Origin: an uncultured Gammaproteobacteria bacterium
Lineage (GTDB): Bacteria; Patescibacteriota; Patescibacteriia; Patescibacteriales; UBA12465
Length of the DNA: 64,000 nucleotides
NCBI GenBank assembly: GCA_964355275.1
Contig: CAYHCB010000006.1
Coordinates: forward strand, 9,745 to 73,744
Reading direction: 5' to 3'
The translations under genes and the position numbers were made by a program. Shown here in pieces: positions 6,404 through 45,067 of the stretch; positions within the stretch are counted from its first letter, which is position 1, and every line of letters begins with the position of its first letter. Below the pieces are notes generated by a model. The model made no database searches. It was not told the origin of the DNA and was given only the letters and a program-made list of their open reading frames with translations.

Positions 6404-8056
6404 TTAGTTTTGAATTTTTATATTTATTTTATCTGGGATAGTTGGCGCGGTAGAAATAAATGACGGTGAGAAATTTAATTCATAACTTTTTATTTCTGGA
6501 AAGCTATCAAGATACTCAGATATTTGTTCACGGTTTAGACCAACTAATTTCTTACGATCAAACAGTGATGAATTAGATTTTAAGGACATTGAACCACTAA
6601 AATAAGCTTTAATAACTGCCGTTTTAGTATTTTCATCAAAACTTTCTAAAGTATAAGTAATTTGTTCTTTATTAAAATTGGACAATTCTTTGTCATCAGG
6701 AACTAATAAGGAAAGGCGCGCCTGAGCTAAACTAATTGCTTTTTCTTTTGGAAAAGTAACTACGACCACCTTCTTTTTAGCCTTAACAATAAATTCTTCC
6801 TTGGATTCCCCTAGCTTGGCATTATATTCAATAGTAATGTTGTCGTCAGTGGCGTCGCCATTAATACCGTAAATTACTACCTTATCAGTGCCAGTAATCT
6901 TTAAATCATTTTTAACCTTTAAATCTAAAACTTCACTGATATCTTTTTTAGCCGAATCTAAATCACGTTGTTTTATATATTTCTTAACTTGAGTTTGATA
7001 AGTAAAAGATTCTTCACTTTCACCATAAATTTGGTCCTGTATACCCGCCCATAAACCCGGGATAGTAAAATGACTAGGATTAGTTATGGCCATCTCAGCA
7101 CTAGGCTTGTCAGCGTAAACATTAATTGTAACTTGTCCGCCAGCTGGCACATTAGTGGCTTCTTTTAAGCGAAATAATTTACCGTCCGCGGAAAGTAATC
7201 TGGTATTTACAACTAATGGTTGATTTTTATTATATTTATTAATTAGGGTAACTTTACCGATCACCTCTTCTCCTAAAACTTCCTCGCCACTAGTTTGATA
7301 TATTTTTTCCGAACTAACCTCAATAACTTGGGCCTCACCATAAATATTTTTATTATACTTAGCCTCAGAATTAGAGTTAATGTCAGTTAAAGGCGAGGTA
7401 GTACTGGAACTAGAAATATTAAAAGTTAAAGAATCGTTTAATGTTTCGCCTTGCGGTGAAATTAAAATTGTTAATTTTGAAAAAAATATATAAAACACGG
7501 CTAATAGTAAAATTGCTGTAGCCCCTAAATAAAATAAAGCTTGGCGTCTATAAAGTCCAATTGATTTTTTATTAGGCGCCAGAGTTGGCTTTTCTTCACC
7601 TTCTTTTGGTTTTACTTGAGAGGCCCATTCAGAAAAAAATTTCTTTTGTTTATCAAAATCTTCTCTATCGTCTAAACCGATTTCATTATTAATCTTATTT
7701 TTTGACTCATCACTTGATTCTTCTGTTTCATCTTCGCTGTAAATATCTTCTGGCTCTAATTTATTTTCTAATTCATTTTTAGGTTCAGTTTTTTTAAAAT
7801 CAGGCCAAGAAGAAAAAACCGGGATAGATTCCTTAGAACTAGTTGGTTGAGAAAAAACATCTTCATCAGAGATAACATCAATTGCAATCTTATTAGATAT
7901 AACAGGGGTTACTTTATTTGTTTTTTTGGTAACCACTTTTTTTATAACTTTTTTCTTGGTAATTACTGGTTTACTTTTGATAACTACTTTTTTCTTTTTA
8001 GGAGTAACTGATTTAATTTTAGTTTTAGGTTTAAGTTTCTTACTTATTTTTGGCAT
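6404..8056 (-). CDS. Hypothetical membrane protein with Lys-rich N-terminal tail and acidic linker
   Basis: N-terminus KLKPKTKIKSVTPKKKKVVIKSKPVITKKKVIKKVVTKK, acidic stretch, one TM (LFYLGATAILLLAVFYIFF), ~350-aa outer domain. Confidence 0.5.
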   Translation of the reverse strand: MPKISKKLKPKTKIKSVTPKKKKVVIKSKPVITKKKVIKKVVTKKTNKVTPVISNKIAIDVISDEDVFSQPTSSKESIPVFSSWPDFKKTEPKNELENKLEPEDIYSEDETEESSDESKNKINNEIGLDDREDFDKQKKFFSEWASQVKPKEGEEKPTLAPNKKSIGLYRRQALFYLGATAILLLAVFYIFFSKLTILISPQGETLNDSLTFNISSSSTTSPLTDINSNSEAKYNKNIYGEAQVIEVSSEKIYQTSGEEVLGEEVIGKVTLINKYNKNQPLVVNTRLLSADGKLFRLKEATNVPAGGQVTINVYADKPSAEMAITNPSHFTIPGLWAGIQDQIYGESEESFTYQTQVKKYIKQRDLDSAKKDISEVLDLKVKNDLKITGTDKVVIYGINGDATDDNITIEYNAKLGESKEEFIVKAKKKVVVVTFPKEKAISLAQARLSLLVPDDKELSNFNKEQITYTLESFDENTKTAVIKAYFSGSMSLKSNSSLFDRKKLVGLNREQISEYLDSFPEIKSYELNFSPSFISTAPTIPDKINIKIQN

Positions 8057-8147: not shown

Positions 8148-11100
8148 TTAATTCTCAACAATTTTTAAAGCTCCAGAAAAAAGTCCTTGAAGAGCAATTA
8201 CTAAGTTTTTAGAATTATTTACCTTGAAGCCAGTCTTCATAATAGTATCTTTACTGGCTTGTTTTATTTTAAAATAAGTATCACTGGTACCAGGATGAGC
8301 AATTAATAGCTCTCTTAAAACCTGCAACTCTTCGGCTAATAAATCCCTTTCAAAAATTATTTTAAGAGGTGTCGTGTCATCATTTTTTTTTGACTCGCCT
8401 GATTCAGTTTTATTTAAATTATTACTTATTTTATTTGCACTAACAATTTTATTAGCATTACTACTGTAAGCAGTTAACTTGTCATTACCGGGACGATTAT
8501 ATTTATTTTTTTGCCAAGAATTACCATTACCATTTTTTTCTCTAGCAGCCATCATTAATTTTTTAAAATCATCTACAGAATTTTGCGGGGACACTGCATC
8601 TAGTATCATGACTTGATTAATAAGCAATTTAACGTCCTGGTCTTTTTCAGAGACACCACCTTCGCAAATAATGGCTCTGCCTTCTTGCCAGATAACTAGA
8701 GTTTCTTTAAGTAACCTGGGGAAAATTAAAAGTTCTACCGAAGAAGTCGCATCTTCAATCTTAACAAACAACATTGATTCATTTTTTTTAGTAATAATTT
8801 TTTTAATTGAGCCAATAATACCAGCGGTCACTACTGAATTTGCTCCTTTATGACGATGTAAATCAACTAAAGGAACGGCATACTCTGATAAATATTTTTT
8901 ATAGCCATTAAAAGGGTGCTCACTAATATACAAACCTAGAAGTTCTTTTTCCCAGGCTAGTTTTTCTGCTTGTGGTGTTGGCTCAACAATTTCCAAAGTA
9001 ACCTTTGGCTGATAAGAAACTTCGGTGGCCCCAGAAAATAAACTACTTTGGCGACTTTCTTTATTTTTACTAATCTCTTTATTTAAAAGAAGTAATTTTT
9101 CCGAATTAACTAAAAGACTGCCACGTTCACCCCAATGTTCTAAAGCACCACATTTTATTAAACTCTCTAAAGATTTTTTATTTAAATCTCGATCAGTAAT
9201 TCTTTCTAAAAAATTAAATAAATCTAAATAAGCGCCGCCAGATTTTCGTTCTTTAATTATTACGGAAACAATATGTTCGCCAATATTTTTAATAGCATTT
9301 AAACCAAAACGAATGGTATCAACTACCTCATCTTCACTAACAATTTTATGTTCCGCTGTTCCCGCGGTTACTACTGTAAAAGAATCAAAAGATTCATTAA
9401 CATCTGGAGGCATAATTTTTATACCCATGTTACGACATTCCTCAATTTCAATTGAGATTCGATCAGTATCATGTTGATCGGCTGTCAGCAGCGCCGCCAT
9501 AAACTCTACTGGCCAATGAGCCTTAAGATAAGCGGTTTGGTAACCAATAAGAGCGTAGCAAGCAGCATGCGAACGATTAAAGCCATAACCAGCAAAGGGT
9601 TCAATAAAAGAAAATATTTTTTCCGCTAATTCTTTATAAATTCCATTTTTAACACAACCATCGGTAAACTTTTCTTTTTGTTCAGCGAGTAAACTAACAA
9701 TTTTTTTACCCATGGCTTTTCTAAGCACATCGGCTTGCCCCATAGAAAAACCAGCCAAGTCACGAGCTATTTGCATAACTTGCTCTTGGTAAATGGCGAC
9801 GCCATAAGTTTTTGCTAAAATTGGTTCTAGTTTAGGATGTAAATAAACAACCTTTTTCTCACCATGTTTGCCACTGATATAATCAGGAATCCACTCCATT
9901 GGACCAGGGCGATACAGAGCTACCATGGCAATAATATCTTCGAATTCAGTTGGCTTTAAATCGCGTAAATAGCGTTTCATCCCTGAAGATTCAAATTGAA
10001 AAACTCCTGTTGTCTCACCTCTTTGGAATAATTCATAAGCCGACTTATCGTCCATCGGAATATCATTAATATTAATCTTAAGTCCTCTGACATTTTTAAT
10101 AATCTTTAACGCTGCTTCAATAATCGTTAAATTTTTTAAACCTAAAAAATCCATTTTAAGTAATCCTAAATCTTCAATCGGGTGGGCGGAATACTGAGAA
10201 ACAATTGTTTTATCAGCCGAAGAGGCATACTGAATTGGCGTATAGTCAGTTAAAGGATTTTTAGTAATAAGCACGCCACAAGCATGAGTAGAAGCGTGTC
10301 TAGCAACTCCTTCTAAACGTAAAGCGTAATCTAAAACTCTTTTGGCATCTGGATTTTTAGCATATTTTTCTTTCAGTTCAGGAACTGTTTTAATGGCATC
10401 ATTTAGTTTAGTAAACATTGGAATATCTTTTGCTAAACTATCACAAAAATCATAAGGATAATCTAAAACGCGACCAACATCACGCACGGCCGCTCGAGCC
10501 GCCATAGTTCCAAAAGTAATAATTTGAGAAACATGATCTTCACCATATTTTTTCGCAACATAATTTAAAACATCATTACGACGAATATCAGAAAAGTCCA
10601 TATCAATATCAGGCATTGAGACTCTTTCTGGGTTTAAAAAACGTTCAAAAAGTAAATCATATTTCAAGGGATCAAGATTAGTAATCCCGGTTAAATAACA
10701 AAGCAGAGACCCCGCAGCGCTACCACGACCTGGGCCAACAACAACGCCAGCGTCTTTAGCCCAATTAACAAAATCAGCCACAATTAAAAAATAATCAGGC
10801 CAACCCATTTTTTCTACCACTGATAATTCAAAATCCATGCGATCAAGAATTATTTTGGCTTCTTCACTTTTTAAATCTAAATCTGGATAACGTAATTTAA
10901 TACCAACTTCACATTGATGACGTAAATACGAATCACCACTATAACCGGCTGGCACTTCAAAATGAGGTAATTGAATTTGCCCAAGTTCAATTTCTAAATT
11001 ACATTTTTCCGCAATTTTCAAGGTATTAGAAATAGCCTCAGGGGTATCTTTAAAGGCCTCGATCATTTCCACATTTGAACGCATCGAATAATCGCCATGT

Positions 11101-33199: not shown

Positions 33200-33943
33200 T
33201 TACTTAATTAAATCATTTACTTCTTTTAATTTATCAAGAGCTTCAGTATATTTCTTTTCATCAAACAAAGTTTTTGCTTCTTCTAAAATTTTAGTTGTAG
33301 TAGAGGTAGTGGCGACAACAACTTCATTATTAACTTCAGTGCCTGCTAAAGAAACACCGGTCTCATCTTTCTTTAAAGTGGCGCTAAAAACTTCTGTACT
33401 GCCAGTAGCTGAACCGACTGTAGAAATTTCTTGTACAACTGGTTTTTCTAATCTAGCCACACTCTTTCGGACAGTCTTCATTTCTTTTTCAAACTTAACA
33501 TTTAGGGCCGCAATTTCCTCTTTATTGTCAAAACTTGGATCAGCTAAAACAGTGGTTATATCCTGAGCATTACTAGCCGCAAATTGTCCGGCCATTTTGT
33601 CTCGATCATCGGAATTAAAAATAGTAGTTAATTTTGCTTGTTCAGAGATTTCCCGAGCGATATATAATGATTGGTTAGGTTTAGTCTTAGCTAAAAGTAA
33701 ATGGCCGTAAGCGCTGGAAGTAACCACAAATAACATTAAAGAGGCTAAGGCAATAGCTGGAGCAGAGGCAGTTTTTAAAGCGCTCTGAAAATTGATAAAA
33801 AAAGATGACCAGGCCGACGAATTTGTCGCTCCGGAGTTAGAAATTTGGGTAAATAAAGAATCCCGATTAGCTTTTAACCAGCTAGTATCGGGTTTGATTT
33901 CTCTAAGATTACCTAATTTTTTGATAAGATCACGGTCAGTCAT
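33200..33943 (-). CDS. Membrane-anchored anti-sigma-like protein (DUF5667-like, tentative)
   Basis: Downstream of the ECF sigma. Short cytoplasmic N-terminus, one TM (PAIALASLMLFVVTSSAY), extracytoplasmic helical/T-rich domain. Confidence 0.5.
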   Translation of the reverse strand: MTDRDLIKKLGNLREIKPDTSWLKANRDSLFTQISNSGATNSSAWSSFFINFQSALKTASAPAIALASLMLFVVTSSAYGHLLLAKTKPNQSLYIAREISEQAKLTTIFNSDDRDKMAGQFAASNAQDITTVLADPSFDNKEEIAALNVKFEKEMKTVRKSVARLEKPVVQEISTVGSATGSTEVFSATLKKDETGVSLAGTEVNNEVVVATTSTTTKILEEAKTLFDEKKYTEALDKLKEVNDLIK

Positions 33944-34031
33944 AAAATTATGTATTATTACGCTTTAATATACGTAATAAAAGAAAAAACGTTACAGTTG
34001 GCAACGTCTTCTCTTTTTTCTATTTGTTCTA

Positions 34032-34613
34032 TTAATTTTTTTGATCTTCTTCGATTAAGTCTTTAAGCGCGGCTAGTGAACGATGCAGTAAAACCCGAAT
34101 ATTACCCTTAGTTTTACCAGTTACTTCACTAATTTCATCAATATTTAAATCATTTACGAACTTTAAAACAATTACCTCGCGGTATTCTTCCTTAAGTAAA
34201 GGTAATTTGCTCTTTATTCTATTTAAATCAGCATTTCGGTCCATATCAGCCTCTAAATCTTTGCCTTCATCAGCAATATCTATCGGATGAGCTTCATCAT
34301 CTAAAGAAATTTCTAATTTATTACCAGTTTCCCGATAATAATCAACTATCGAGGTGCGTGCTATTTTATATAAAAGAGCTCTTAAAGTACTACTACTAGT
34401 TAAGCTATTATTTTGGATATGATTCCAAGTTTTTAAAAATATCATGGAAGTCAAATCTTTAGCTTCCTCAGACTCACCAACCTTAAAATAAACAAAACGA
34501 TAGATATCGCCGGCAAAATCATCGTAAACCTTAATAAAAGCATCCTTGTCTTTATTTTTAAGACGACTTAAGGTTTGTTTGTCTTTAAATTTCTTAACCA
34601 GTGGTAATGACAT
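34032..34613 (-). CDS. ECF-type sigma-70 family RNA polymerase sigma factor
   Basis: 193 aa; region 2 (DLTSMIFLKTWNHI, ALLYKIARTSIVDYYR) and region 4 (YREVIVLKFVNDLNIDEISEVTGKTKGNIRVLLHRSL). Confidence 0.85.
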   Translation of the reverse strand: MSLPLVKKFKDKQTLSRLKNKDKDAFIKVYDDFAGDIYRFVYFKVGESEEAKDLTSMIFLKTWNHIQNNSLTSSSTLRALLYKIARTSIVDYYRETGNKLEISLDDEAHPIDIADEGKDLEADMDRNADLNRIKSKLPLLKEEYREVIVLKFVNDLNIDEISEVTGKTKGNIRVLLHRSLAALKDLIEEDQKN

Positions 34614-38798: not shown

Positions 38799-39218
38799 AT
38801 GAAAAAAATCATTCAAGAATTTAAAGAATTTGCCGTAAAAGGTAATGCTATAGAACTAGCCACAGCGGTGGTTATTGGCGGTGCTTTTGGTAAAATAGTT
38901 ACCTCTTTAGTAAGTGATATTATAATGCCACTAGCTGGCGTATTTACTGGTGGCGGATCTTTCTCTGATTGGAAAATTATTTTAAAAGAAGCAAACGGTA
39001 TAAAAACAGCTCTTACTTTAAATATCGGACTTTTTATCCAAAATATAATTGATTTCCTAATCATTGCTGCCGCAATATTTTTAATGATAAAATTACTTGC
39101 CAGACTCAAAGAACAACTTAAAAAAAGCAAAGCTGAAGAAGAAAAAATTGCCCCCGAGCCTAAACCAACTAAAGAACAGGAATTACTAATTGAAATTAGA
39201 GACTTATTAAAAAAATAA
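38799..39218 (+). CDS. mscL: Large-conductance mechanosensitive channel
   Basis: FKEFAVKGNAIELATAVVIGGAFGKIVTSLVSDIIMPL; two TMs; charged C-terminus. Confidence 0.9.
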   Translation: MKKIIQEFKEFAVKGNAIELATAVVIGGAFGKIVTSLVSDIIMPLAGVFTGGGSFSDWKIILKEANGIKTALTLNIGLFIQNIIDFLIIAAAIFLMIKLLARLKEQLKKSKAEEEKIAPEPKPTKEQELLIEIRDLLKK

Positions 39219-39226
39219 AAGAAACA

Positions 39227-39258
39227 AAAAAAGAGTCCTAAATAAATAGGGCTCTTTT
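39227..39258. terminator. Bidirectional terminator
   Basis: Stem AAAAGAGTCCTA/TAGGGCTCTTTT (one G-T). Confidence 0.6.
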
Positions 39259-39281: not shown

Positions 39282-39818
39282 TTATTTAATGAAGGTTAAA
39301 CTTTTAGCAATATTATCTATAACTAATTCTAAATCAGCTCTTTTTTCGCCATCATACCAAGCCATAAATGCATAAACCTTATTATTATTTATATAGGTAT
39401 ATCTTATTTCAGTTTGGCCGTCTTTAAAAGTTTTTTCCGGATTAGGATTAGCAATTACAGCGCCATCTAGAACCCAGATGCTTAAAGTAAAATCAGAACA
39501 CTGGAAAATACCTTTATTAAAAAAACATGAACCAGGATATTTCAACTTTACCCCCATTTCCTCATCTTCATAGGTAAAAGTTTTTCTTTTTTCTTCTTGA
39601 CTGACCGGTGGTAAATTATTTTTATTAGCGCTAATTGTTCCTGTTGCAGTTGAGGTGGCGCCAGTAACAGCAGAAGCATCTATCGGAACAGAACAGGTTG
39701 TGTTATTTAAACTAAGGGGCGGCGTCACGTCTGGTTTTATTTTTTCTCCACCAAGAAGTGAACAACCAGAAACTAAAAAGATAAGCGTTAATAAAGAAAG
39801 AAACCAGTATTTTTTCAT
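39282..39818 (-). CDS. Putative lipoprotein
   Basis: Signal peptide with lipobox LVSGC. No other motif. Confidence 0.6.
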   Translation of the reverse strand: MKKYWFLSLLTLIFLVSGCSLLGGEKIKPDVTPPLSLNNTTCSVPIDASAVTGATSTATGTISANKNNLPPVSQEEKRKTFTYEDEEMGVKLKYPGSCFFNKGIFQCSDFTLSIWVLDGAVIANPNPEKTFKDGQTEIRYTYINNNKVYAFMAWYDGEKRADLELVIDNIAKSLTFIK

Positions 39819-39850
39819 AAAGGTAAATATATAATTTATTTATTTCTATA

Positions 39851-40354
39851 TTATAGCACCAAAAGACCAGACCAGACTAATCCAGTAATAACTATTAAAC
39901 TGGCAAAAATAATTCTAAAAATTAAACCAAAACGACCAGCTAACCACATCAGACCAATAAGCGGAAAACCAATCAGCGGCCAAAGGCTAGTTCCCTGTTT
40001 TAAATAATTTAAGCCATCGCGAGAAGCACCTTTTAAATCTTCATCACTAGGAAAAGCATGAGCGGCTACAGAAAAAGCTAACCATAAAAATATAATTCTC
40101 ATATAAGAACCCTCATCAAAAATGTAAATAAAGTAAGCTAGAAAAAAAGCTACTAAGGAATTAAAAATAATCGGACCAGTGGCCACAAAAAAAGATTGAA
40201 GATAATTTCTTGGAGCCTCATGCATGACATAACCACTGGGATTTCCAAAACGAAAATAGACAGTTTTAATAACCTTTAAACCAGATATTTGGCAAAATAT
40301 TTTATGAGCCCACTCATGAATAGCGACACCCGGAAAAGTTAAAAAGAAAAACAT
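39851..40354 (-). CDS. Polytopic membrane protein with HExxH motif (DUF3267-like putative zincin)
   Basis: AIHEWAHKIF at the first TM boundary. Start moved to ATG 40354 because the longer start sits inside the upstream terminator hairpin. Confidence 0.55.
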   Translation of the reverse strand: MFFFLTFPGVAIHEWAHKIFCQISGLKVIKTVYFRFGNPSGYVMHEAPRNYLQSFFVATGPIIFNSLVAFFLAYFIYIFDEGSYMRIIFLWLAFSVAAHAFPSDEDLKGASRDGLNYLKQGTSLWPLIGFPLIGLMWLAGRFGLIFRIIFASLIVITGLVWSGLLVL

Positions 40355-40396
40355 AAATATTATAATTATATAAACATTATAACATAGGCTAAATAA

Positions 40397-40429
40397 AAAA
40401 ATCACCCCGCCTTAAAACGGAGTGATTTT
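40397..40429 (-). terminator. Intrinsic terminator after the 40447 gene
   Basis: Minus strand ATCACTCCG..CGGGGTGAT followed by TTTTTTTA. Confidence 0.6.
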
Positions 40430-40446
40430 AAAAATATTTTTTAAAT

Positions 40447-40935
40447 TTATTTAATTGGAGTGGCTGGAATAACTGGTGCTACTGCCTTTACTGGAACTAC
40501 TGGAGTAGCCGGACTAATATTTTGATTTAACATCGGACAAGAAAAATTTTGCGCTTGAAAAGTTTCTCCAGATATTTGAGCGCCACCATTTCTCATTGGA
40601 CAGCCACCCTGAACTTGAGCTGCTGCTTCCATCTGACAACCGCCACCGTTAAATTTATTACCACGTTCCATTTGACTACCACCGCGTCTATCAAAATTAG
40701 TCATCATTTTAGAACCATAATTACCGCCCTCACGATAATAATCATTATTACCTCGATTTAAGTGAGAACCAAAACTAGCACCGATTGAAAAAATAGCAAA
40801 AACTATAATTGCTACTAGAAAAATCCGAACACACTTATGCCCCTTACAGTCACCATGATGACCACAAAAAGCATGCTTTTTATGCTCTTCTTTAGATTCT
40901 TCAATTTTTTCGCTTTCAATCTTGTCTTCTTCCAT
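40447..40935 (-). CDS. Membrane-anchored Cys/His/Met/Gly-rich protein (possible metal binding)
   Basis: HKKHAFCGHHGDCKGHKC before a TM. Outer part has GGCQME, GGCPMRN and SCPMLN repeats. Confidence 0.5.
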   Translation of the reverse strand: MEEDKIESEKIEESKEEHKKHAFCGHHGDCKGHKCVRIFLVAIIVFAIFSIGASFGSHLNRGNNDYYREGGNYGSKMMTNFDRRGGSQMERGNKFNGGGCQMEAAAQVQGGCPMRNGGAQISGETFQAQNFSCPMLNQNISPATPVVPVKAVAPVIPATPIK

Positions 40936-41026
40936 AGGATTTAAAATTAATTATATTTTATAAAATTTTTAGTTACTTATAGGTAATACGCAAAATACTT
41001 TTTTTTCTTCAAATTAATAAAGATAC

Positions 41027-41063
41027 AAAAAAGGGCGGATAAAATCGCTTAAACCGCCCTTTC
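41027..41063 (-). terminator. Intrinsic terminator after the 41093 gene
   Basis: Stem AAAGGGCGG/CCGCCCTTT; minus strand followed by TTTTTGT. Confidence 0.6.
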
Positions 41064-41092
41064 TATATAAATAATATATTGTTTTTTATTCT

Positions 41093-41563
41093 TTATTTAG
41101 CATCAAATTGACCACCCATTCCCATTCCCATTCCTCGCCCTTCACCTTTAGTGACGCCTAATTCTGTCATAATTGCATCAGCTTGCTGACGTAAGTTATG
41201 GGCTTCAACAAATCGACTAAAATTACTAGCATTAATGGTTTTTAAAATTGGGGCATTTGCTCCTTCAGCCGCTACCCAAGCATTATAATCATTAGCCGCT
41301 AAAGCAGTTTCAACGGCTGCCTTACGTACTTCTCGCTCAGCTTGATTAGCGGTTCGATTAGCTTCTCTTTCTCCCTGAGTCATACCATTTTCTAAATTAT
41401 TAGCCCCTTTGTTCATTCTAAAATGAGAAGTGATATTAGCAACAGTGTTACCAGCTGAATTTTCTGTACCAGCTGCTAAAGTAGCCGAAGAAATTCCAGC
41501 AGCGCCAATAATTGTTAGCGCCAGTAAACCAAGAGCAAGTTGAGACTTTTTAATTTTTTTCAT
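41093..41563 (-). CDS. Secreted helical protein with Gly/Met-rich C-terminal tail
   Basis: Signal peptide, Ala/Glu/Asn-rich helical body, tail KGEGRGMGMGMGGQFDAK. Confidence 0.55.
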   Translation of the reverse strand: MKKIKKSQLALGLLALTIIGAAGISSATLAAGTENSAGNTVANITSHFRMNKGANNLENGMTQGEREANRTANQAEREVRKAAVETALAANDYNAWVAAEGANAPILKTINASNFSRFVEAHNLRQQADAIMTELGVTKGEGRGMGMGMGGQFDAK

Positions 41564-41646
41564 ATATTTTTTAATTTTAATTTGTAAAGTAATTATTTGT
41601 TAGAACCGGTTCTGCTTAGTACTACGTCTTAAAATTATTTTTCTTC

Positions 41647-41684
41647 AAAAAAATCTCCTCAGTTTTAAATTGAAGAGATTTTTA
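41647..41684 (-). terminator. Intrinsic terminator after the 41703 gene
   Basis: Stem AAAAATCTC(C)TCA/TGA(A)GAGATTTTT; minus strand followed by TTTTTTGAAG. Confidence 0.5.
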
Positions 41685-41702
41685 AATAGATTATAAATAT
41701 AA

Positions 41703-42518
41703 CTAATCTTCTAAAGGTGGCGGCGGCAATAAATCACAAGGTCTATCTTTATTATCTTTATTCTTTTCACAATTTCTAGGCACCCCCTCTGGTCGTGGTC
41801 GTTTAAAAAATCCGCGACCTGGGCCAACTGCTAAAATTTCTTTAACCAAAAATTTATGATCACCAGTTTTTTCTCCCATTAACATAACGGGATAACCAAC
41901 AACCATTTTTTCATCATCGTCATCACTAGAAAGTAAAGTTAACCAATCCTCTCCAGCACGATCAATTAGATGATACTCCAGGGGGCTAGGCTGAGAAATA
42001 ACTAAACCAGATAAACGACCACCTTCTGGATTAGCCCAATAATTAAGTCTAGGATTAATAACTTTATCATATAAAGGAGCTCGTTCTCCTAAAATATCAT
42101 CAATTACGCGATCAAGTCCAAAAGCATTAAGTATCCCGCCAAAAATTAAACTAACCGCAATAATTACTAAAATAACTTTGGCAGTAGAATATTTATAACC
42201 CTTTTTAGTATGTTTTACATAGTAATAAACTAATACAGCAAAAACAGCTAAACAAATTATCCAAAAGAATGGAATTATAAATAATAAAGCTTCCAAAAGA
42301 TTGCCACCGGCACGACCGTAAACACCAGCATCTTCACTCCTTATCATAAAAAAAATAAGCGAAGTAGAAATTGCCCCTAGAGCCAAAGAAAAAATACCCA
42401 AAAACCAAATAAAGGAGTTCTTTAAAAGAAACTGCCATTTTGGTTTCGGCGATATTTTTAATTCTTTAATTTTGTGCAAAAAATTTTCGCCAAAATTTTT
42501 ATCTTCTAAATTGCTCAT
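41703..42518 (-). CDS. Polytopic membrane protein, candidate anti-sigma partner
   Basis: ATGA overlap with the upstream ECF sigma gene. Three TMs. C-terminal domain ending PRNCEKNKDNKDRPCDLLPPPPLED. Confidence 0.5.
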   Translation of the reverse strand: MSNLEDKNFGENFLHKIKELKISPKPKWQFLLKNSFIWFLGIFSLALGAISTSLIFFMIRSEDAGVYGRAGGNLLEALLFIIPFFWIICLAVFAVLVYYYVKHTKKGYKYSTAKVILVIIAVSLIFGGILNAFGLDRVIDDILGERAPLYDKVINPRLNYWANPEGGRLSGLVISQPSPLEYHLIDRAGEDWLTLLSSDDDDEKMVVGYPVMLMGEKTGDHKFLVKEILAVGPGRGFFKRPRPEGVPRNCEKNKDNKDRPCDLLPPPPLED

Positions 42519-43099
42519 ATTTTAATTTGTTGTTTAATTAGCTCCCGTTTAAATTCACTTTTAGCTTTATTCATTAAAGATCCAACAGTACCAATTGGTT
42601 TCTTTATAATATCAGAAATTTCTTGATAGTTTTTTTCTTCTAAAAACTTTAAAACTAAAACTTCTCGATATTTTTCTGCTAAAGAATATAAAATTTTAGC
42701 GACTTTATCTTTTAAGTAAAGATTATCTATTTCATTTTCAATATTAAAGTTAAACATTATTTTACTGGCACTATCATCTTCTAGAGTAATGCTGTGTCCT
42801 TCCGCCCGAGCATTTAAACGACGATGTTGGCTTATTACCTGATTTCTCGCGACCGCATAAATCCAAGATGAGAATTTTAAATCAGTATCAAAATCATTTA
42901 GATTTAAATAAACTTTTAAAAATACGTCTTGTAATAAATCCTCAGCATCTTCATCTCTTACATTAGTTATCCGTCTAATATAATTAAAAAGTTTTGTCTT
43001 ATAACGATTAATAATTAACACAAAATTATCCTGATTTTCCAGGGCTAATTTTACTATTTCTTCGTCGCTAAGTTGTTCTGTCACCTCTGGATTAATCAT
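42515..43099 (-). CDS. ECF-type sigma-70 family sigma factor
   Basis: Region 2 (DLLQDVFLKVYLNL, SWIYAVARNQVISQHRR) and region 4 (YREVLVLKFLEEKNYQEISDIIKKPIGTVGSLMNKA). Confidence 0.85.
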   Translation of the reverse strand: MINPEVTEQLSDEEIVKLALENQDNFVLIINRYKTKLFNYIRRITNVRDEDAEDLLQDVFLKVYLNLNDFDTDLKFSSWIYAVARNQVISQHRRLNARAEGHSITLEDDSASKIMFNFNIENEIDNLYLKDKVAKILYSLAEKYREVLVLKFLEEKNYQEISDIIKKPIGTVGSLMNKAKSEFKRELIKQQIKI

Positions 43100-43118
43100 G
43101 TTTTTGTCTTTACTATTA

Positions 43119-43144
43119 ATACGTAAAGATTTATAAATTCTTCA
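43119..43144 (-). promoter_or_regulatory. ECF-type promoter-like motif upstream of the sigma gene
   Basis: Minus strand TTGAAG, 16 nt, CGTATT, 18 nt before the ATG. Resembles TGAAAC-N16-CGTATA. Confidence 0.4.
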
Positions 43145-43152
43145 AACCTTCT

Positions 43153-44299: not shown

Positions 44300-45067
44300 T
44301 TATTTACGTAATTTATAAAACAGAATAGCGGCGGCCACTGAAACATTTAAAGATTCAATTTTATCAGAAATATCAATTTTGATAGTTTGACTAGCCATTT
44401 GACCAATTTCAGCGCTAACACCATGACTTTCATTGCCTAAAACTAAACAAAAATTATCAACCGGCTTAAGCTCATCTAAATCTAAACTGCCCCGTGAGCT
44501 AGTGACATACAGTGGTAATTTATTTTGTTTAAGCCAAGCGCCATTTTTATCTTCTAAAATATTTAATTTAAAAATAGAATCTTTAGCGGCGGCAATTGTC
44601 TTAGCATTATAAATATCCACACAAGTATCATCTAAAACTAAATTAGTAAAATTAAAAGCTAAAGCCGTACGCATAATAGTGCCTAAATTACCCGGATCAC
44701 TGACACCATTTAAATAAATAACTGATTTGCTGGCAACTAAATCATTAACCGGAAATTTATAAATAGCCGTAATTCCCGAGGGTGTGTCTAATTGAGAATA
44801 ATGACGATTAAGTGCTTCATCAATTATATAATAAGGGGCGTTAGAATTTTCTTGTAAAACTTGGAATTTATCAAGATGTCTAGTGATAAATTCAGCGGTC
44901 ACAAATAAAACCTCAAAATCATAACCACTGGCTAAGGCGTCGCTAATAATTGTTAAGTTTTCTACGGTAAATTGTTTAAACTCATACCGGTATTTTTTAA
45001 GTGCCAGTTTGCCTAATAATTTGATTTGATTATTTTGTAAGCTAACAATGGTTTCTAGTTTTTTCAT
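44300..45067 (-). CDS. TrmH/SpoU-family RNA 2'-O-methyltransferase
   Basis: SPOUT motifs GNLGTIMRTA, LVLGNESHGVS, ESLNVSVAAAI. Confidence 0.8.
   Translation of the reverse strand: MKKLETIVSLQNNQIKLLGKLALKKYRYEFKQFTVENLTIISDALASGYDFEVLFVTAEFITRHLDKFQVLQENSNAPYYIIDEALNRHYSQLDTPSGITAIYKFPVNDLVASKSVIYLNGVSDPGNLGTIMRTALAFNFTNLVLDDTCVDIYNAKTIAAAKDSIFKLNILEDKNGAWLKQNKLPLYVTSSRGSLDLDELKPVDNFCLVLGNESHGVSAEIGQMASQTIKIDISDKIESLNVSVAAAILFYKLRK

Follow-up and report, generated by a model that had tools for sequence, protein, structure and literature searches.

The gene order in which an extracytoplasmic function (ECF) σ factor is followed by an anti-σ factor at position +1 and a PF13801 protein at position +2 has already been described for the groups ECF281 and ECF290, while the experimentally studied relative CnrH belongs to ECF291, and both CnrY and ECF241 provide examples of short non-canonical anti-σ segments (PMC7826278). 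Two further reference points are SigW, which has the consensus TGAAAC/CGTA (PMC5758882), and ZraP, which acts in the periplasm as a chaperone belonging to an envelope-stress pathway (PMC4987338). Here, we describe a locus of recognizable ECF type at positions 39282–43145 of a 64-kb stretch of contig CAYHCB010000006.1 (assembly GCA_964355275.1); this whole stretch, with a GC content of ~32%, is referred to as the window, and all motif and gene counts for this genome refer to it. The minus strand of the locus encodes six proteins, none of which is named in any public source: an ECF σ factor, a membrane partner (g2), a secreted protein (g3), a single-pass membrane protein (g4), a polytopic membrane protein (g5), and a lipoprotein (g6). 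With moderate confidence, we interpret the locus as an autoregulated ECF σ/membrane anti-σ module of a Falkowbacteria-like Patescibacterium comprising three transcription units. What sets this variant apart is that the membrane partner falls into no described class and that, in Patescibacteria, a ZraP-like protein is among the targets.

ECF281 and ECF290 share with this locus the succession of a σ factor, a membrane anti-σ factor at +1, and a secreted protein of the PF13801 type ("heavy-metal resistance", the ZraP/CnrX family) at +2. Likewise, g3 occupies +2 and is ZraP-like, but it falls below Pfam thresholds. The locus is further set apart by its host phylum, Patescibacteria, and by the type of its membrane protein: the anti-σ factor is a zinc-finger protein in ECF281 and RskA-like in ECF290, whereas the g2 family contains neither domain and g2 instead combines three transmembrane (TM) segments with an OB-fold. 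The CnrYXH–CnrCBA system of Cupriavidus metallidurans pMOL28 (ECF291) offers a similar combination of an ECF σ factor, a short non-canonical membrane anti-σ factor, an extracytoplasmic PF13801-family sensor, and neighboring σ-dependent efflux. However, its gene order is Y-X-H rather than σ-g2-g3, its pump is of the RND type as opposed to the MacB-type ABC pump found in relatives of the present locus, and the two σ factors are only 23% identical. Homology to CnrYXH was rejected, leaving an analogy only, since hhalign comparison of the g3 family with CnrX yielded a score of 11.7, equal to that of shuffles, and comparison of the g2 family with CnrY a probability of 0.7%. The SigW–RsiW system of B. 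subtilis is similar in several other respects: SigW is the closest solved σ factor, TGAAAC-N16-CGTA is matched here by TGAAG-N16-CGTA (PMC5758882), autoregulation is common to both, and relatives of the present locus have a MacB/YknXYZ-like pump as one of the targets. Conversely, the σ factor scores below the SigW equivalog cutoff, the putative anti-σ factor is unrelated to RsiW, having no ZAS motif (HxxxCxxC) and three TM segments rather than one, and the −35 element is followed by an A-tract instead of the T-tract seen in Bacillus. Lastly, g3 resembles ZraP in its signal peptide, an LTxxQ motif (in most of the family), predicted helical core, G-x-G-M-G-M-G tail, size, and collinearity, with YNA...A..P...KIN...NLRQ...(A/T)E(A/L)G shared between the two, and g3 appears to be induced by the adjoining pathway, as are zraP, cpxP, and spy. 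The regulator of ZraP (with Spy and CpxP, in E. coli/Salmonella) is a two-component system with σ54, whereas here it would be an ECF σ/anti-σ pair; furthermore, the His-rich Zn motifs of ZraP are missing from g3, and the homology is remote. The host itself is presumably devoid of an outer membrane and hence of a periplasm.

The σ factor gene (42515..43099, minus strand) encodes a 194-aa group 4 protein of SigW/RpoE-like type, which contains regions 2 and 4 only (Pfam Sigma70_r2, residues 30–96, 7e-15; Sigma70_r4_2, residues 133–181, 1e-8) and scores 90 bits against the sigma70-ECF model TIGR02937, for which the cutoff is 42.9. Its best NCBIfam match is SigW, and B. subtilis SigW is also its closest solved structure (5WUQ, 80 bits); however, the 95 bits obtained fall short of the equivalog cutoff of 209, as do the 88 bits of a second model with a cutoff of 243 (NF007223 / TIGR02948), which places the protein outside the SigW equivalog family. 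Exactly as reported in the initial annotation, which suggested autoregulation from its likeness to the SigW consensus, TTGAAG-N16-CGTATT is present upstream of the gene (P_sig, 43145–43120 on the minus strand), 20 nt 5' of the start codon. A feature of the ECF family is autoregulation from a promoter whose −35 element is of the AAC type and whose −10 element is of the CGT type; the P_sig motif agrees with this and is conserved in relatives. The initial annotation had noted the motif before the σ factor gene only; in the window, TGAAG-N16-CGTA matches three times compared to an expectation of 0.29, and none of 100 shuffles reached three. All three sites are intergenic, lie on the minus strand, and are located 20–60 nt 5' of the genes for the σ factor, g3 (P_g3, TTGAAG-N16-CGTA, 41623..41648), and g4 (P_g4, TTGAAG-N16-CGTA(TT), 40987..41012), while the same scan found no copy before g5–g6. 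Hence, the expectation that the motif would precede the putative regulon genes was borne out for g3 and g4, both here and in relatives, but not for g5 or g6.

The six open reading frames (ORFs) and their order agree with the initial annotation (the start of g5 required correction), as does the coupling of the σ factor to a partner with three hydrophobic segments. The genes were also said to be separated by terminators, which is accurate after g2, g3, g4, and g6 (ΔG −12.4 to −17.4 kcal/mol, z −3.4 to −7.2) and inaccurate for the translationally coupled σ and g2 genes and for g5 and g6, as neither pair has a terminator between its members. The terminator of the σ-g2 operon (41649..41683, minus strand; −12.9 kcal/mol, z −4.3) has a T-run that abuts the −35 element of P_g3, and hairpins with differing stem sequences occur at this same position in 8 related loci. 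The next follows g3 (41028..41064, minus strand; −16.7 kcal/mol, z −3.4, then a T-run), and a 14-bp stem 3' of g4 (40398..40429, minus strand; −17.4 kcal/mol, z −7.2) marks the end of the ECF-controlled part. The locus would therefore seem to be organized into three ECF-dependent units (σ-g2, g3, and g4) as well as one housekeeping-type unit (g5-g6).

To place the locus among its relatives, the g2 alignment was used to collect 80 loci from species-representative genomes, which span many Patescibacteria classes in addition to the Chlorobiaceae, whereas motif counts were taken over 84 related loci. The g2 family is small, comprising 61 clusters whose names are Falkowbacteria or Patescibacteria only. 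The conservation of the gene neighborhood is evident: a σ factor gene is found directly 5' of g2 in 58/59 low-GC and 20/21 higher-GC loci (78 of the 80 testable), and in 32/50 low-GC loci a g3-like gene follows g2 at a distance of at most 2.5 kb, with 3 more elsewhere in the locus. A MacB-type operon encoding a Gly-rich lipoprotein, a YknX-like adaptor, an ABC ATPase, and an FtsX permease occurs in 19 of the 44 long low-GC loci, but it was not found in the 64-kb window. By comparison, g4, g5, and g6 are confined to close relatives (4, 7, and 5 of these 44 loci, respectively). The strict motif has 38 copies in the 84 loci and 34 of them precede σ factor genes, g3, g4-like genes, or the MacB operon: 9 are located before the σ factor (L001, L002, L003, L006, L007, L009, L011, L013, and L021 in our numbering of the loci), 15 before g3 (including one frameshifted copy), 7 before the MacB operon, and 3 before g4-like genes (L005, L006, and L009). 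The remaining 4 look like chance matches. With a relaxed motif (GAA[AGT]-N16-17-CGTA within 130 nt 5' of the gene, background 1.4% per interval), sites were found 5' of the σ factor in 20/46 low-GC loci (P ~3e-25) and 5' of g3 in 22/33 (P ~2e-33), and the consensus reads T-GAA-(G/A)-(A/G)-AAA...G-CGTA, which follows the TGAAAC/CGTA pattern of B. subtilis SigW (PMC5758882) apart from the A-tract after the −35 element. The Chlorobiaceae (L056, L057, L060, L073, and L084) retain the σ-g2 pair; their +2 gene (~8950–9300) encodes a small secreted Ala/Lys/Pro-rich low-complexity protein of 77–103 aa, which is not ZraP-like. When metagenome contigs were scanned for the promoter, the matches listed were mostly chance occurrences inside ORFs, and the intergenic ones preceded σ factors (at least 3), g3 (at least 3), the lipoprotein of the pump operon (lipoG), and a tail-less g3-like gene.

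The only new functional class among the metagenome matches listed is a 66-aa peptide in L194 (9634–9950), an unrelated metagenome contig, where it follows the same promoter and a leader (CGTATTACTAAATAGAAACAGG) that is also similar. His, Cys, and Met are abundant in this protein (HEEGHNHGEHCCMMGMMEGC), which has neither a signal peptide nor a TM segment and could be an additional regulon member of metal-binding appearance. A further strict copy of the motif is found inside a SpoU-type methyltransferase gene (L002, 3652–3676; L090, 139–168), which is located upstream of a malic enzyme gene and the σ factor gene in both loci. This copy may be a chance match or an internal promoter; the SpoU gene of the window (44300–45067) does not contain it.

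The second gene of the proposed operon, g2 (41703..42518, minus strand), encodes a 271-aa protein whose start codon overlaps the σ factor stop codon as ATGA, indicating translational coupling. It is because of this coupling and the near-universal adjacency to the σ factor that we presume g2 to be the cognate anti-σ factor: both co-transcription, as judged from the ATGA overlap, and conserved adjacency, in 78/80 loci, are what would be expected of such a protein. In the AlphaFold2 (AF2) model (mean predicted local distance difference test [pLDDT] 75.8), g2 is predicted to have an N-terminal helix at residues 4–19 and to cross the membrane in three TM helices, with the basic loop HTKKGYKY exposed to the cytoplasm; on the extracytoplasmic side, a helical linker leads to a five-stranded β-domain at residues 168–229, which is modeled at a pLDDT >90. 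The cytoplasmic N-terminus is modeled as a single helix of ~16 residues within a segment of only ~30 residues. The β-domain matches OB-folds (PAN/Rpt, IF1/eIF1A, and CcmE; Foldseek E ~1e-3, probability ~1). In the family alignment, the residues that never vary are concentrated in KPKWQF and HTKKGYKY, both cytoplasmic, as well as in the OB domain, with conservation strongest in the cytoplasmic elements (W28, F30, T104, G107, and Y108). The disordered extracytoplasmic tail (41703–41800, residues ~232–262) includes a conserved (V)GPGRGFFKRP motif, and most close homologues also encode a C-x(6-10)-C pair after it; this portion of the protein could serve as a cleavage, docking, or redox/metal site. 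No relative of g2 was found in the PDB, none of the 38 family members examined matched zf-HC2, no known anti-σ domain was detected in any member of the family, and the g2 N-terminus contains neither Cys nor His. A bolder reading, which we consider less likely than not, is that g2 represents an undescribed class of ECF anti-σ factor, widespread in Patescibacteria and shared with Chlorobiaceae, in which an N-terminal helix and a cytoplasmic loop would bind the σ factor, three TM segments would span the membrane, and an OB-fold would act as the sensor, accompanied in Patescibacteria by a ZraP-like feedback partner in the style of CpxP.

The target that is most conserved is g3 (41093..41563, minus strand), a 156-aa protein with a signal peptide. 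The initial annotation described it as secreted and ending in a Gly/Met run, and both the signal peptide and the run are present (...GEGRGMGMGMGGQFDAK); however, the run ends 5 residues before the C-terminus and is followed by QFDAK. The accompanying suggestion that this tail resembles that of ZraP proved sound when compared to authentic E. coli ZraP. In hhalign, the g3 family aligned to ZraP with a probability of 95% and a score of 52.2 (shuffles, 16.5±1.5), and even with the tail removed, a probability of 58% and a score of 30.9 were obtained (shuffles, 16.1±0.7). In HMMER with filters off, ZraP scored 16.5 bits, collinear over nearly the full length, and Spy 12.0 bits, compared to no more than 4.3 for 273 decoy ORFs; one ORF that had seemed to be a decoy with a ZraP-like score proved to be ZraP itself, extended upstream. 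CpxP reached a probability of just 2%. Across the family alignment, the G-x-G-M-G-M-G tail is nearly invariant, LT(D/E)xQ is found in most members, and the core reads DYNAWV...AP-IL...NF...VEA; the tail of g3 itself is of the ZraP type, being Gly/Met-rich and placed after ...AE(A/L)G.... The AF2 model predicts a helical core at residues 63–134 (pLDDT >90), in which helices 63–89 and 115–134 are joined by short helices. Taken as a whole, g3 would be best described as a remote protein of the ZraP/Spy type. Some of the distant relatives (L004, 2716–3426, as well as L033, L040, L047, and L050) encode a g3-like protein with a tandem-duplicated GDY-AW...INADNF...ELG domain, and in L002 (6932–7371) the g3 homologue is split over two reading frames downstream of an intact promoter, which is due either to a frameshift, making it a pseudogene, or to a fault in the assembly.

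The g3 leader contains a perfect 12-bp palindrome, AGAACCGGTTCT (41602..41613, unstranded), which lies close behind the −10 element of P_g3 and has no second exact match in the window. A single GAACCGGTTC is present in each of L001 (6909–6918), L002 (6876–6885), L003 (6851–6860), L005 (9512–9521), and L006 (8866–8875), always at the position of the g3-leader palindrome, and in L003 the palindrome is a symmetric variant, GGAACCGGTTCC. An RNA hairpin was ruled out by its folding energy of −0.2 kcal/mol. The lack of a stable RNA fold therefore suggests a DNA operator, which would be recognized by a dimeric DNA-binding protein and would provide a second layer of g3 control.

The third predicted unit consists of g4 (40447..40935, minus strand), a fast-evolving single-pass membrane protein of 162 aa. 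It has an acidic N-terminus, a cytoplasmic Cys/His cluster (HKKHAFCGHHGDCKGHKC), a TM segment, an exterior Gly/Asn/Gln/Met-rich region that carries GGCQM, GGCPM, and SCPM, and a Pro/Val tail. A protein search returned only 2 clusters, g4 itself and an 88% relative, and the g4-like genes of other loci were located instead by their features and promoter. The seven aligned proteins share the acidic N-terminus, a Cys/His-rich juxtamembrane segment, the TM segment, the Gly/Asn/Gln/Met-rich exterior, and the Pro/Val tail. As for the Cys/His/Met motifs to which the initial annotation drew attention, they do exist in g4 but are only partly conserved: G/S-C-x-M motifs recur in only 4/7 of the proteins, and the juxtamembrane Cys/His segment is maintained in composition but not in the positions of its residues. 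We also considered g4 as a ZAS-type anti-σ factor and rejected it, as it has no HxxxCxxC, its N-terminus is short, and it belongs with the targets of the σ factor, not with its partners.

Based upon these features, the following circuit can be envisaged. At rest, g2 would hold the σ factor at the membrane via its N-terminal amphipathic helix, KPKWQF, and the HTKKGYKY loop, while its extracytoplasmic OB-fold and tail (GPGRGFFKRP and the Cys pair) would sense an envelope signal. By analogy with CpxP–CpxA, ZraP–ZraS, and CnrX–CnrY, the ZraP-like g3 could be bound to g2 as an accessory. Upon signal detection, g2 would be inactivated or degraded, and the liberated σ factor would then amplify its own operon and induce both g3 and g4, together with the efflux pump in relatives. 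Newly made g3 might function as a chaperone or a modulator exerting negative feedback, as suggested by the analogies to ZraP (PMC4987338), CpxP, and CnrX, whereas induction of g4 would supply a Cys/His/Met-rich membrane protein. As the signal, both a thiophilic metal (Zn/Cu) and general envelope/antimicrobial stress are compatible with the evidence.

Several observations weigh against this interpretation. Firstly, searches of Pfam and the PDB detected no known anti-σ domain (class I/II) in g2, and its presumed role derives from coupling and adjacency. Secondly, the motif sites are read as promoters from their sequence alone, the exact motif was not found in the most distant loci (the Chlorobiaceae and others), and the regulon may exceed three units, as the window covers 64 kb of the genome. 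Thirdly, the connection between g3 and ZraP is a distant one. The window g3 has MTQGE in place of LTxxQ, and this is its single such motif; it has no Pfam match; and just 3 of 42 g3 homologues match PF13801, all weakly (best E 0.0024). In addition, when the PDB was searched with the g3 model in Foldseek, nothing scored below E 2.6 and ZraP was not recovered, meaning that the fold does not confirm the link, and a HMMER search of the g3 profile against PDB sequences likewise returned only noise (e.g. ribosomal protein S20) and no ZraP.

It is conceivable that the system is a regulon dedicated to sensing a metal (Zn, Cu, or Ni/Co) and detoxifying it, with g3 as a ZraP/CnrX-type sensor, g4 as a metal-binding protein, and the σ factor released by external metal. 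This we regard as unlikely, even though several features would fit: the ZraP resemblance of g3 extends to the Gly/Met tail, the 3 homologues noted above touch upon the "heavy-metal resistance" family, the g4-like proteins have a Cys/His cluster and, in 4/7 cases, G-C-x-M, the L194 protein behind the same promoter is rich in His, Cys, and Met, g2 has its conserved extracytoplasmic Cys pair, and the groups with PF13801 partners, namely ECF281, ECF290, and ECF291 (CnrH), have been tied to heavy-metal stress (PMC7826278). Nevertheless, no metal exporter (P-type ATPase, CDF, RND, or other) was found behind the motif in the 84 loci or among the metagenome matches listed, and the pump that does recur is of the MacB type. 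Moreover, the His-rich motifs of ZraP (HGGHGMW and HMGMGHW) are absent from the window g3, neither the G-C-x-M motifs nor the exact Cys/His positions of g4 are conserved, the comparisons of g3 with CnrX and g2 with CnrY revealed no similarity, and ZraP itself is now seen as an envelope-stress chaperone (PMC4987338). The initial annotation had proposed a metal/envelope stress regulon. Because no metal transporter was found to follow the promoter in any of the loci, the conservation of the motifs is poor, and the third target in relatives is a MacB-type pump, the metal portion of that proposal is plausible but unproven, and an envelope-stress ECF module is the safer description.

A second alternative would be a SigW-type response to antimicrobials or membrane damage, in which MacB-type (YknXYZ-like) efflux is the main output, g3 and g4 are accessories, and the pump has been lost or moved in the present genome. 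Its attractions are the σ factor, which is closest to SigW, the promoter, which is nearly the SigW consensus (PMC5758882), the 19/44 long low-GC loci with a MacB operon, and the 7 loci in which the strict motif stands directly in front of this operon. In B. subtilis, yknWXYZ is part of the SigW regulon, which would speak for the same account. We nonetheless find it doubtful as a description of this locus, in which the module is intact without any MacB operon in the 64-kb window. It follows from this that the pump is dispensable for the core. Furthermore, g2 is unrelated to RsiW (no ZAS motif and no match), and it is g3 rather than the pump that is the most conserved target.

A more improbable scenario is that g2 is not an anti-σ factor at all, but a membrane protein that is co-transcribed with the σ factor and acts as an effector or resembles a transporter, the σ factor being controlled transcriptionally or by an unlinked factor. 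The empty search for anti-σ domains and the cytoplasmic N-terminal segment of only ~30 residues would be in line with such a scenario, as would the JGI annotation of some family members as "cytochrome oxidase subunit 2-like". However, the oxidase match amounts to a similarity of TM hairpins only, with an E value of 0.03, and short non-canonical anti-σ segments have precedents such as CnrY and ECF241 (PMC7826278). Adjacency in 78/80 loci and translational coupling are maintained across very distant lineages, including the Chlorobiaceae, and the conservation of g2 peaks in precisely those elements that face the cytoplasm (W28, F30, T104, G107, and Y108). Finally, the notion that the motif is no promoter but recurs by chance or through the base composition of AT-rich intergenic DNA, to which the ~32% GC content and the frequent chance matches of a 16-base version of the motif in metagenomes might lend some credence, is effectively refuted by the 0/100 shuffles with three sites and by the conservation of its position and orientation 5' of orthologues in dozens of loci with varying flanks.

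The remaining two genes of the locus had been included in the putative regulon by the initial annotation, a view that we do not share. The polytopic membrane protein g5 (39851..40354, minus strand) starts with the ATG at 40354, yielding 167 aa in agreement with the public gene call, and not with the GTG at 40405. It carries the HExxH sequence HEWAH and scores 20 bits against DUF3267, for which the cutoff is 27, whereas members of its family (755 representatives) score 21–27 bits against DUF3267, Peptidase_M50B, and M50, just below cutoff. Accordingly, g5 would be a membrane zincin with a distant relationship to site-2 proteases (DUF3267 / Peptidase_M50B / M50). The proximity of a site-2-protease-like enzyme to a putative anti-σ gene is suggestive with regard to a dedicated protease for g2, yet g5 co-occurs in only 7/44 loci. 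Its partner g6 (39282..39818, minus strand) is a lipoprotein with the lipobox LVSGC that is presumably co-transcribed with g5, and the two genes are adjacent in L003, L005, L006, L008, and L009. The membership of g5 and g6 in the regulon was rejected, as no motif precedes them and they have their own upstream terminator and −10 element, both here and in L003. In the window, the latter is an extended −10-like element of housekeeping rather than ECF type, read as TGtTATAAT (40376..40384, minus strand), and L003 repeats the arrangement at 7380–7430 with a terminator, TGcTATAAT, and the g5 start, the leader being very short or absent. Judging from this arrangement, g5-g6 is a pair of syntenic neighbors served by a putative housekeeping-type promoter and not a part of the regulon.

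A bidirectional terminator at 39229–39258, assigned by folding energy, lies 3' of g6 and is shared with a convergent gene at 38799–39218 (plus strand), whose translation looks MscL-like (large-conductance mechanosensitive channel) by eye. The window also encodes another ECF σ factor (34032–34613, within the region 33200–34613), which is 22% identical to the one described here and is followed by a single-pass membrane protein of 247 aa. TGAAG-N16-CGTA is not found with this gene, and an extended −10-like sequence (TGCTAGAAT) is located upstream of it.

Gene regulation in the Patescibacteria, also known as the Candidate Phyla Radiation (CPR), is almost unstudied, and a full-text search on ECF σ factors in CPR found no relevant paper. 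Against this background, the locus offers a complete and testable circuit: the promoter of its σ factor is sharply delineated and recurs across many CPR classes, its partner is conserved, and its small regulon can be read from sequence. It also places an accessory protein of the ZraP/Spy/CpxP type into a new setting, in a host that presumably has no outer membrane and with an ECF σ factor in lieu of a two-component system. If g2 does represent a new class of anti-σ factor with a ZraP-like feedback partner, this would constitute the first signaling circuit, together with its regulon, to be defined in the CPR, and its promoter motif would be clean enough for regulons to be mapped straight from metagenomes.

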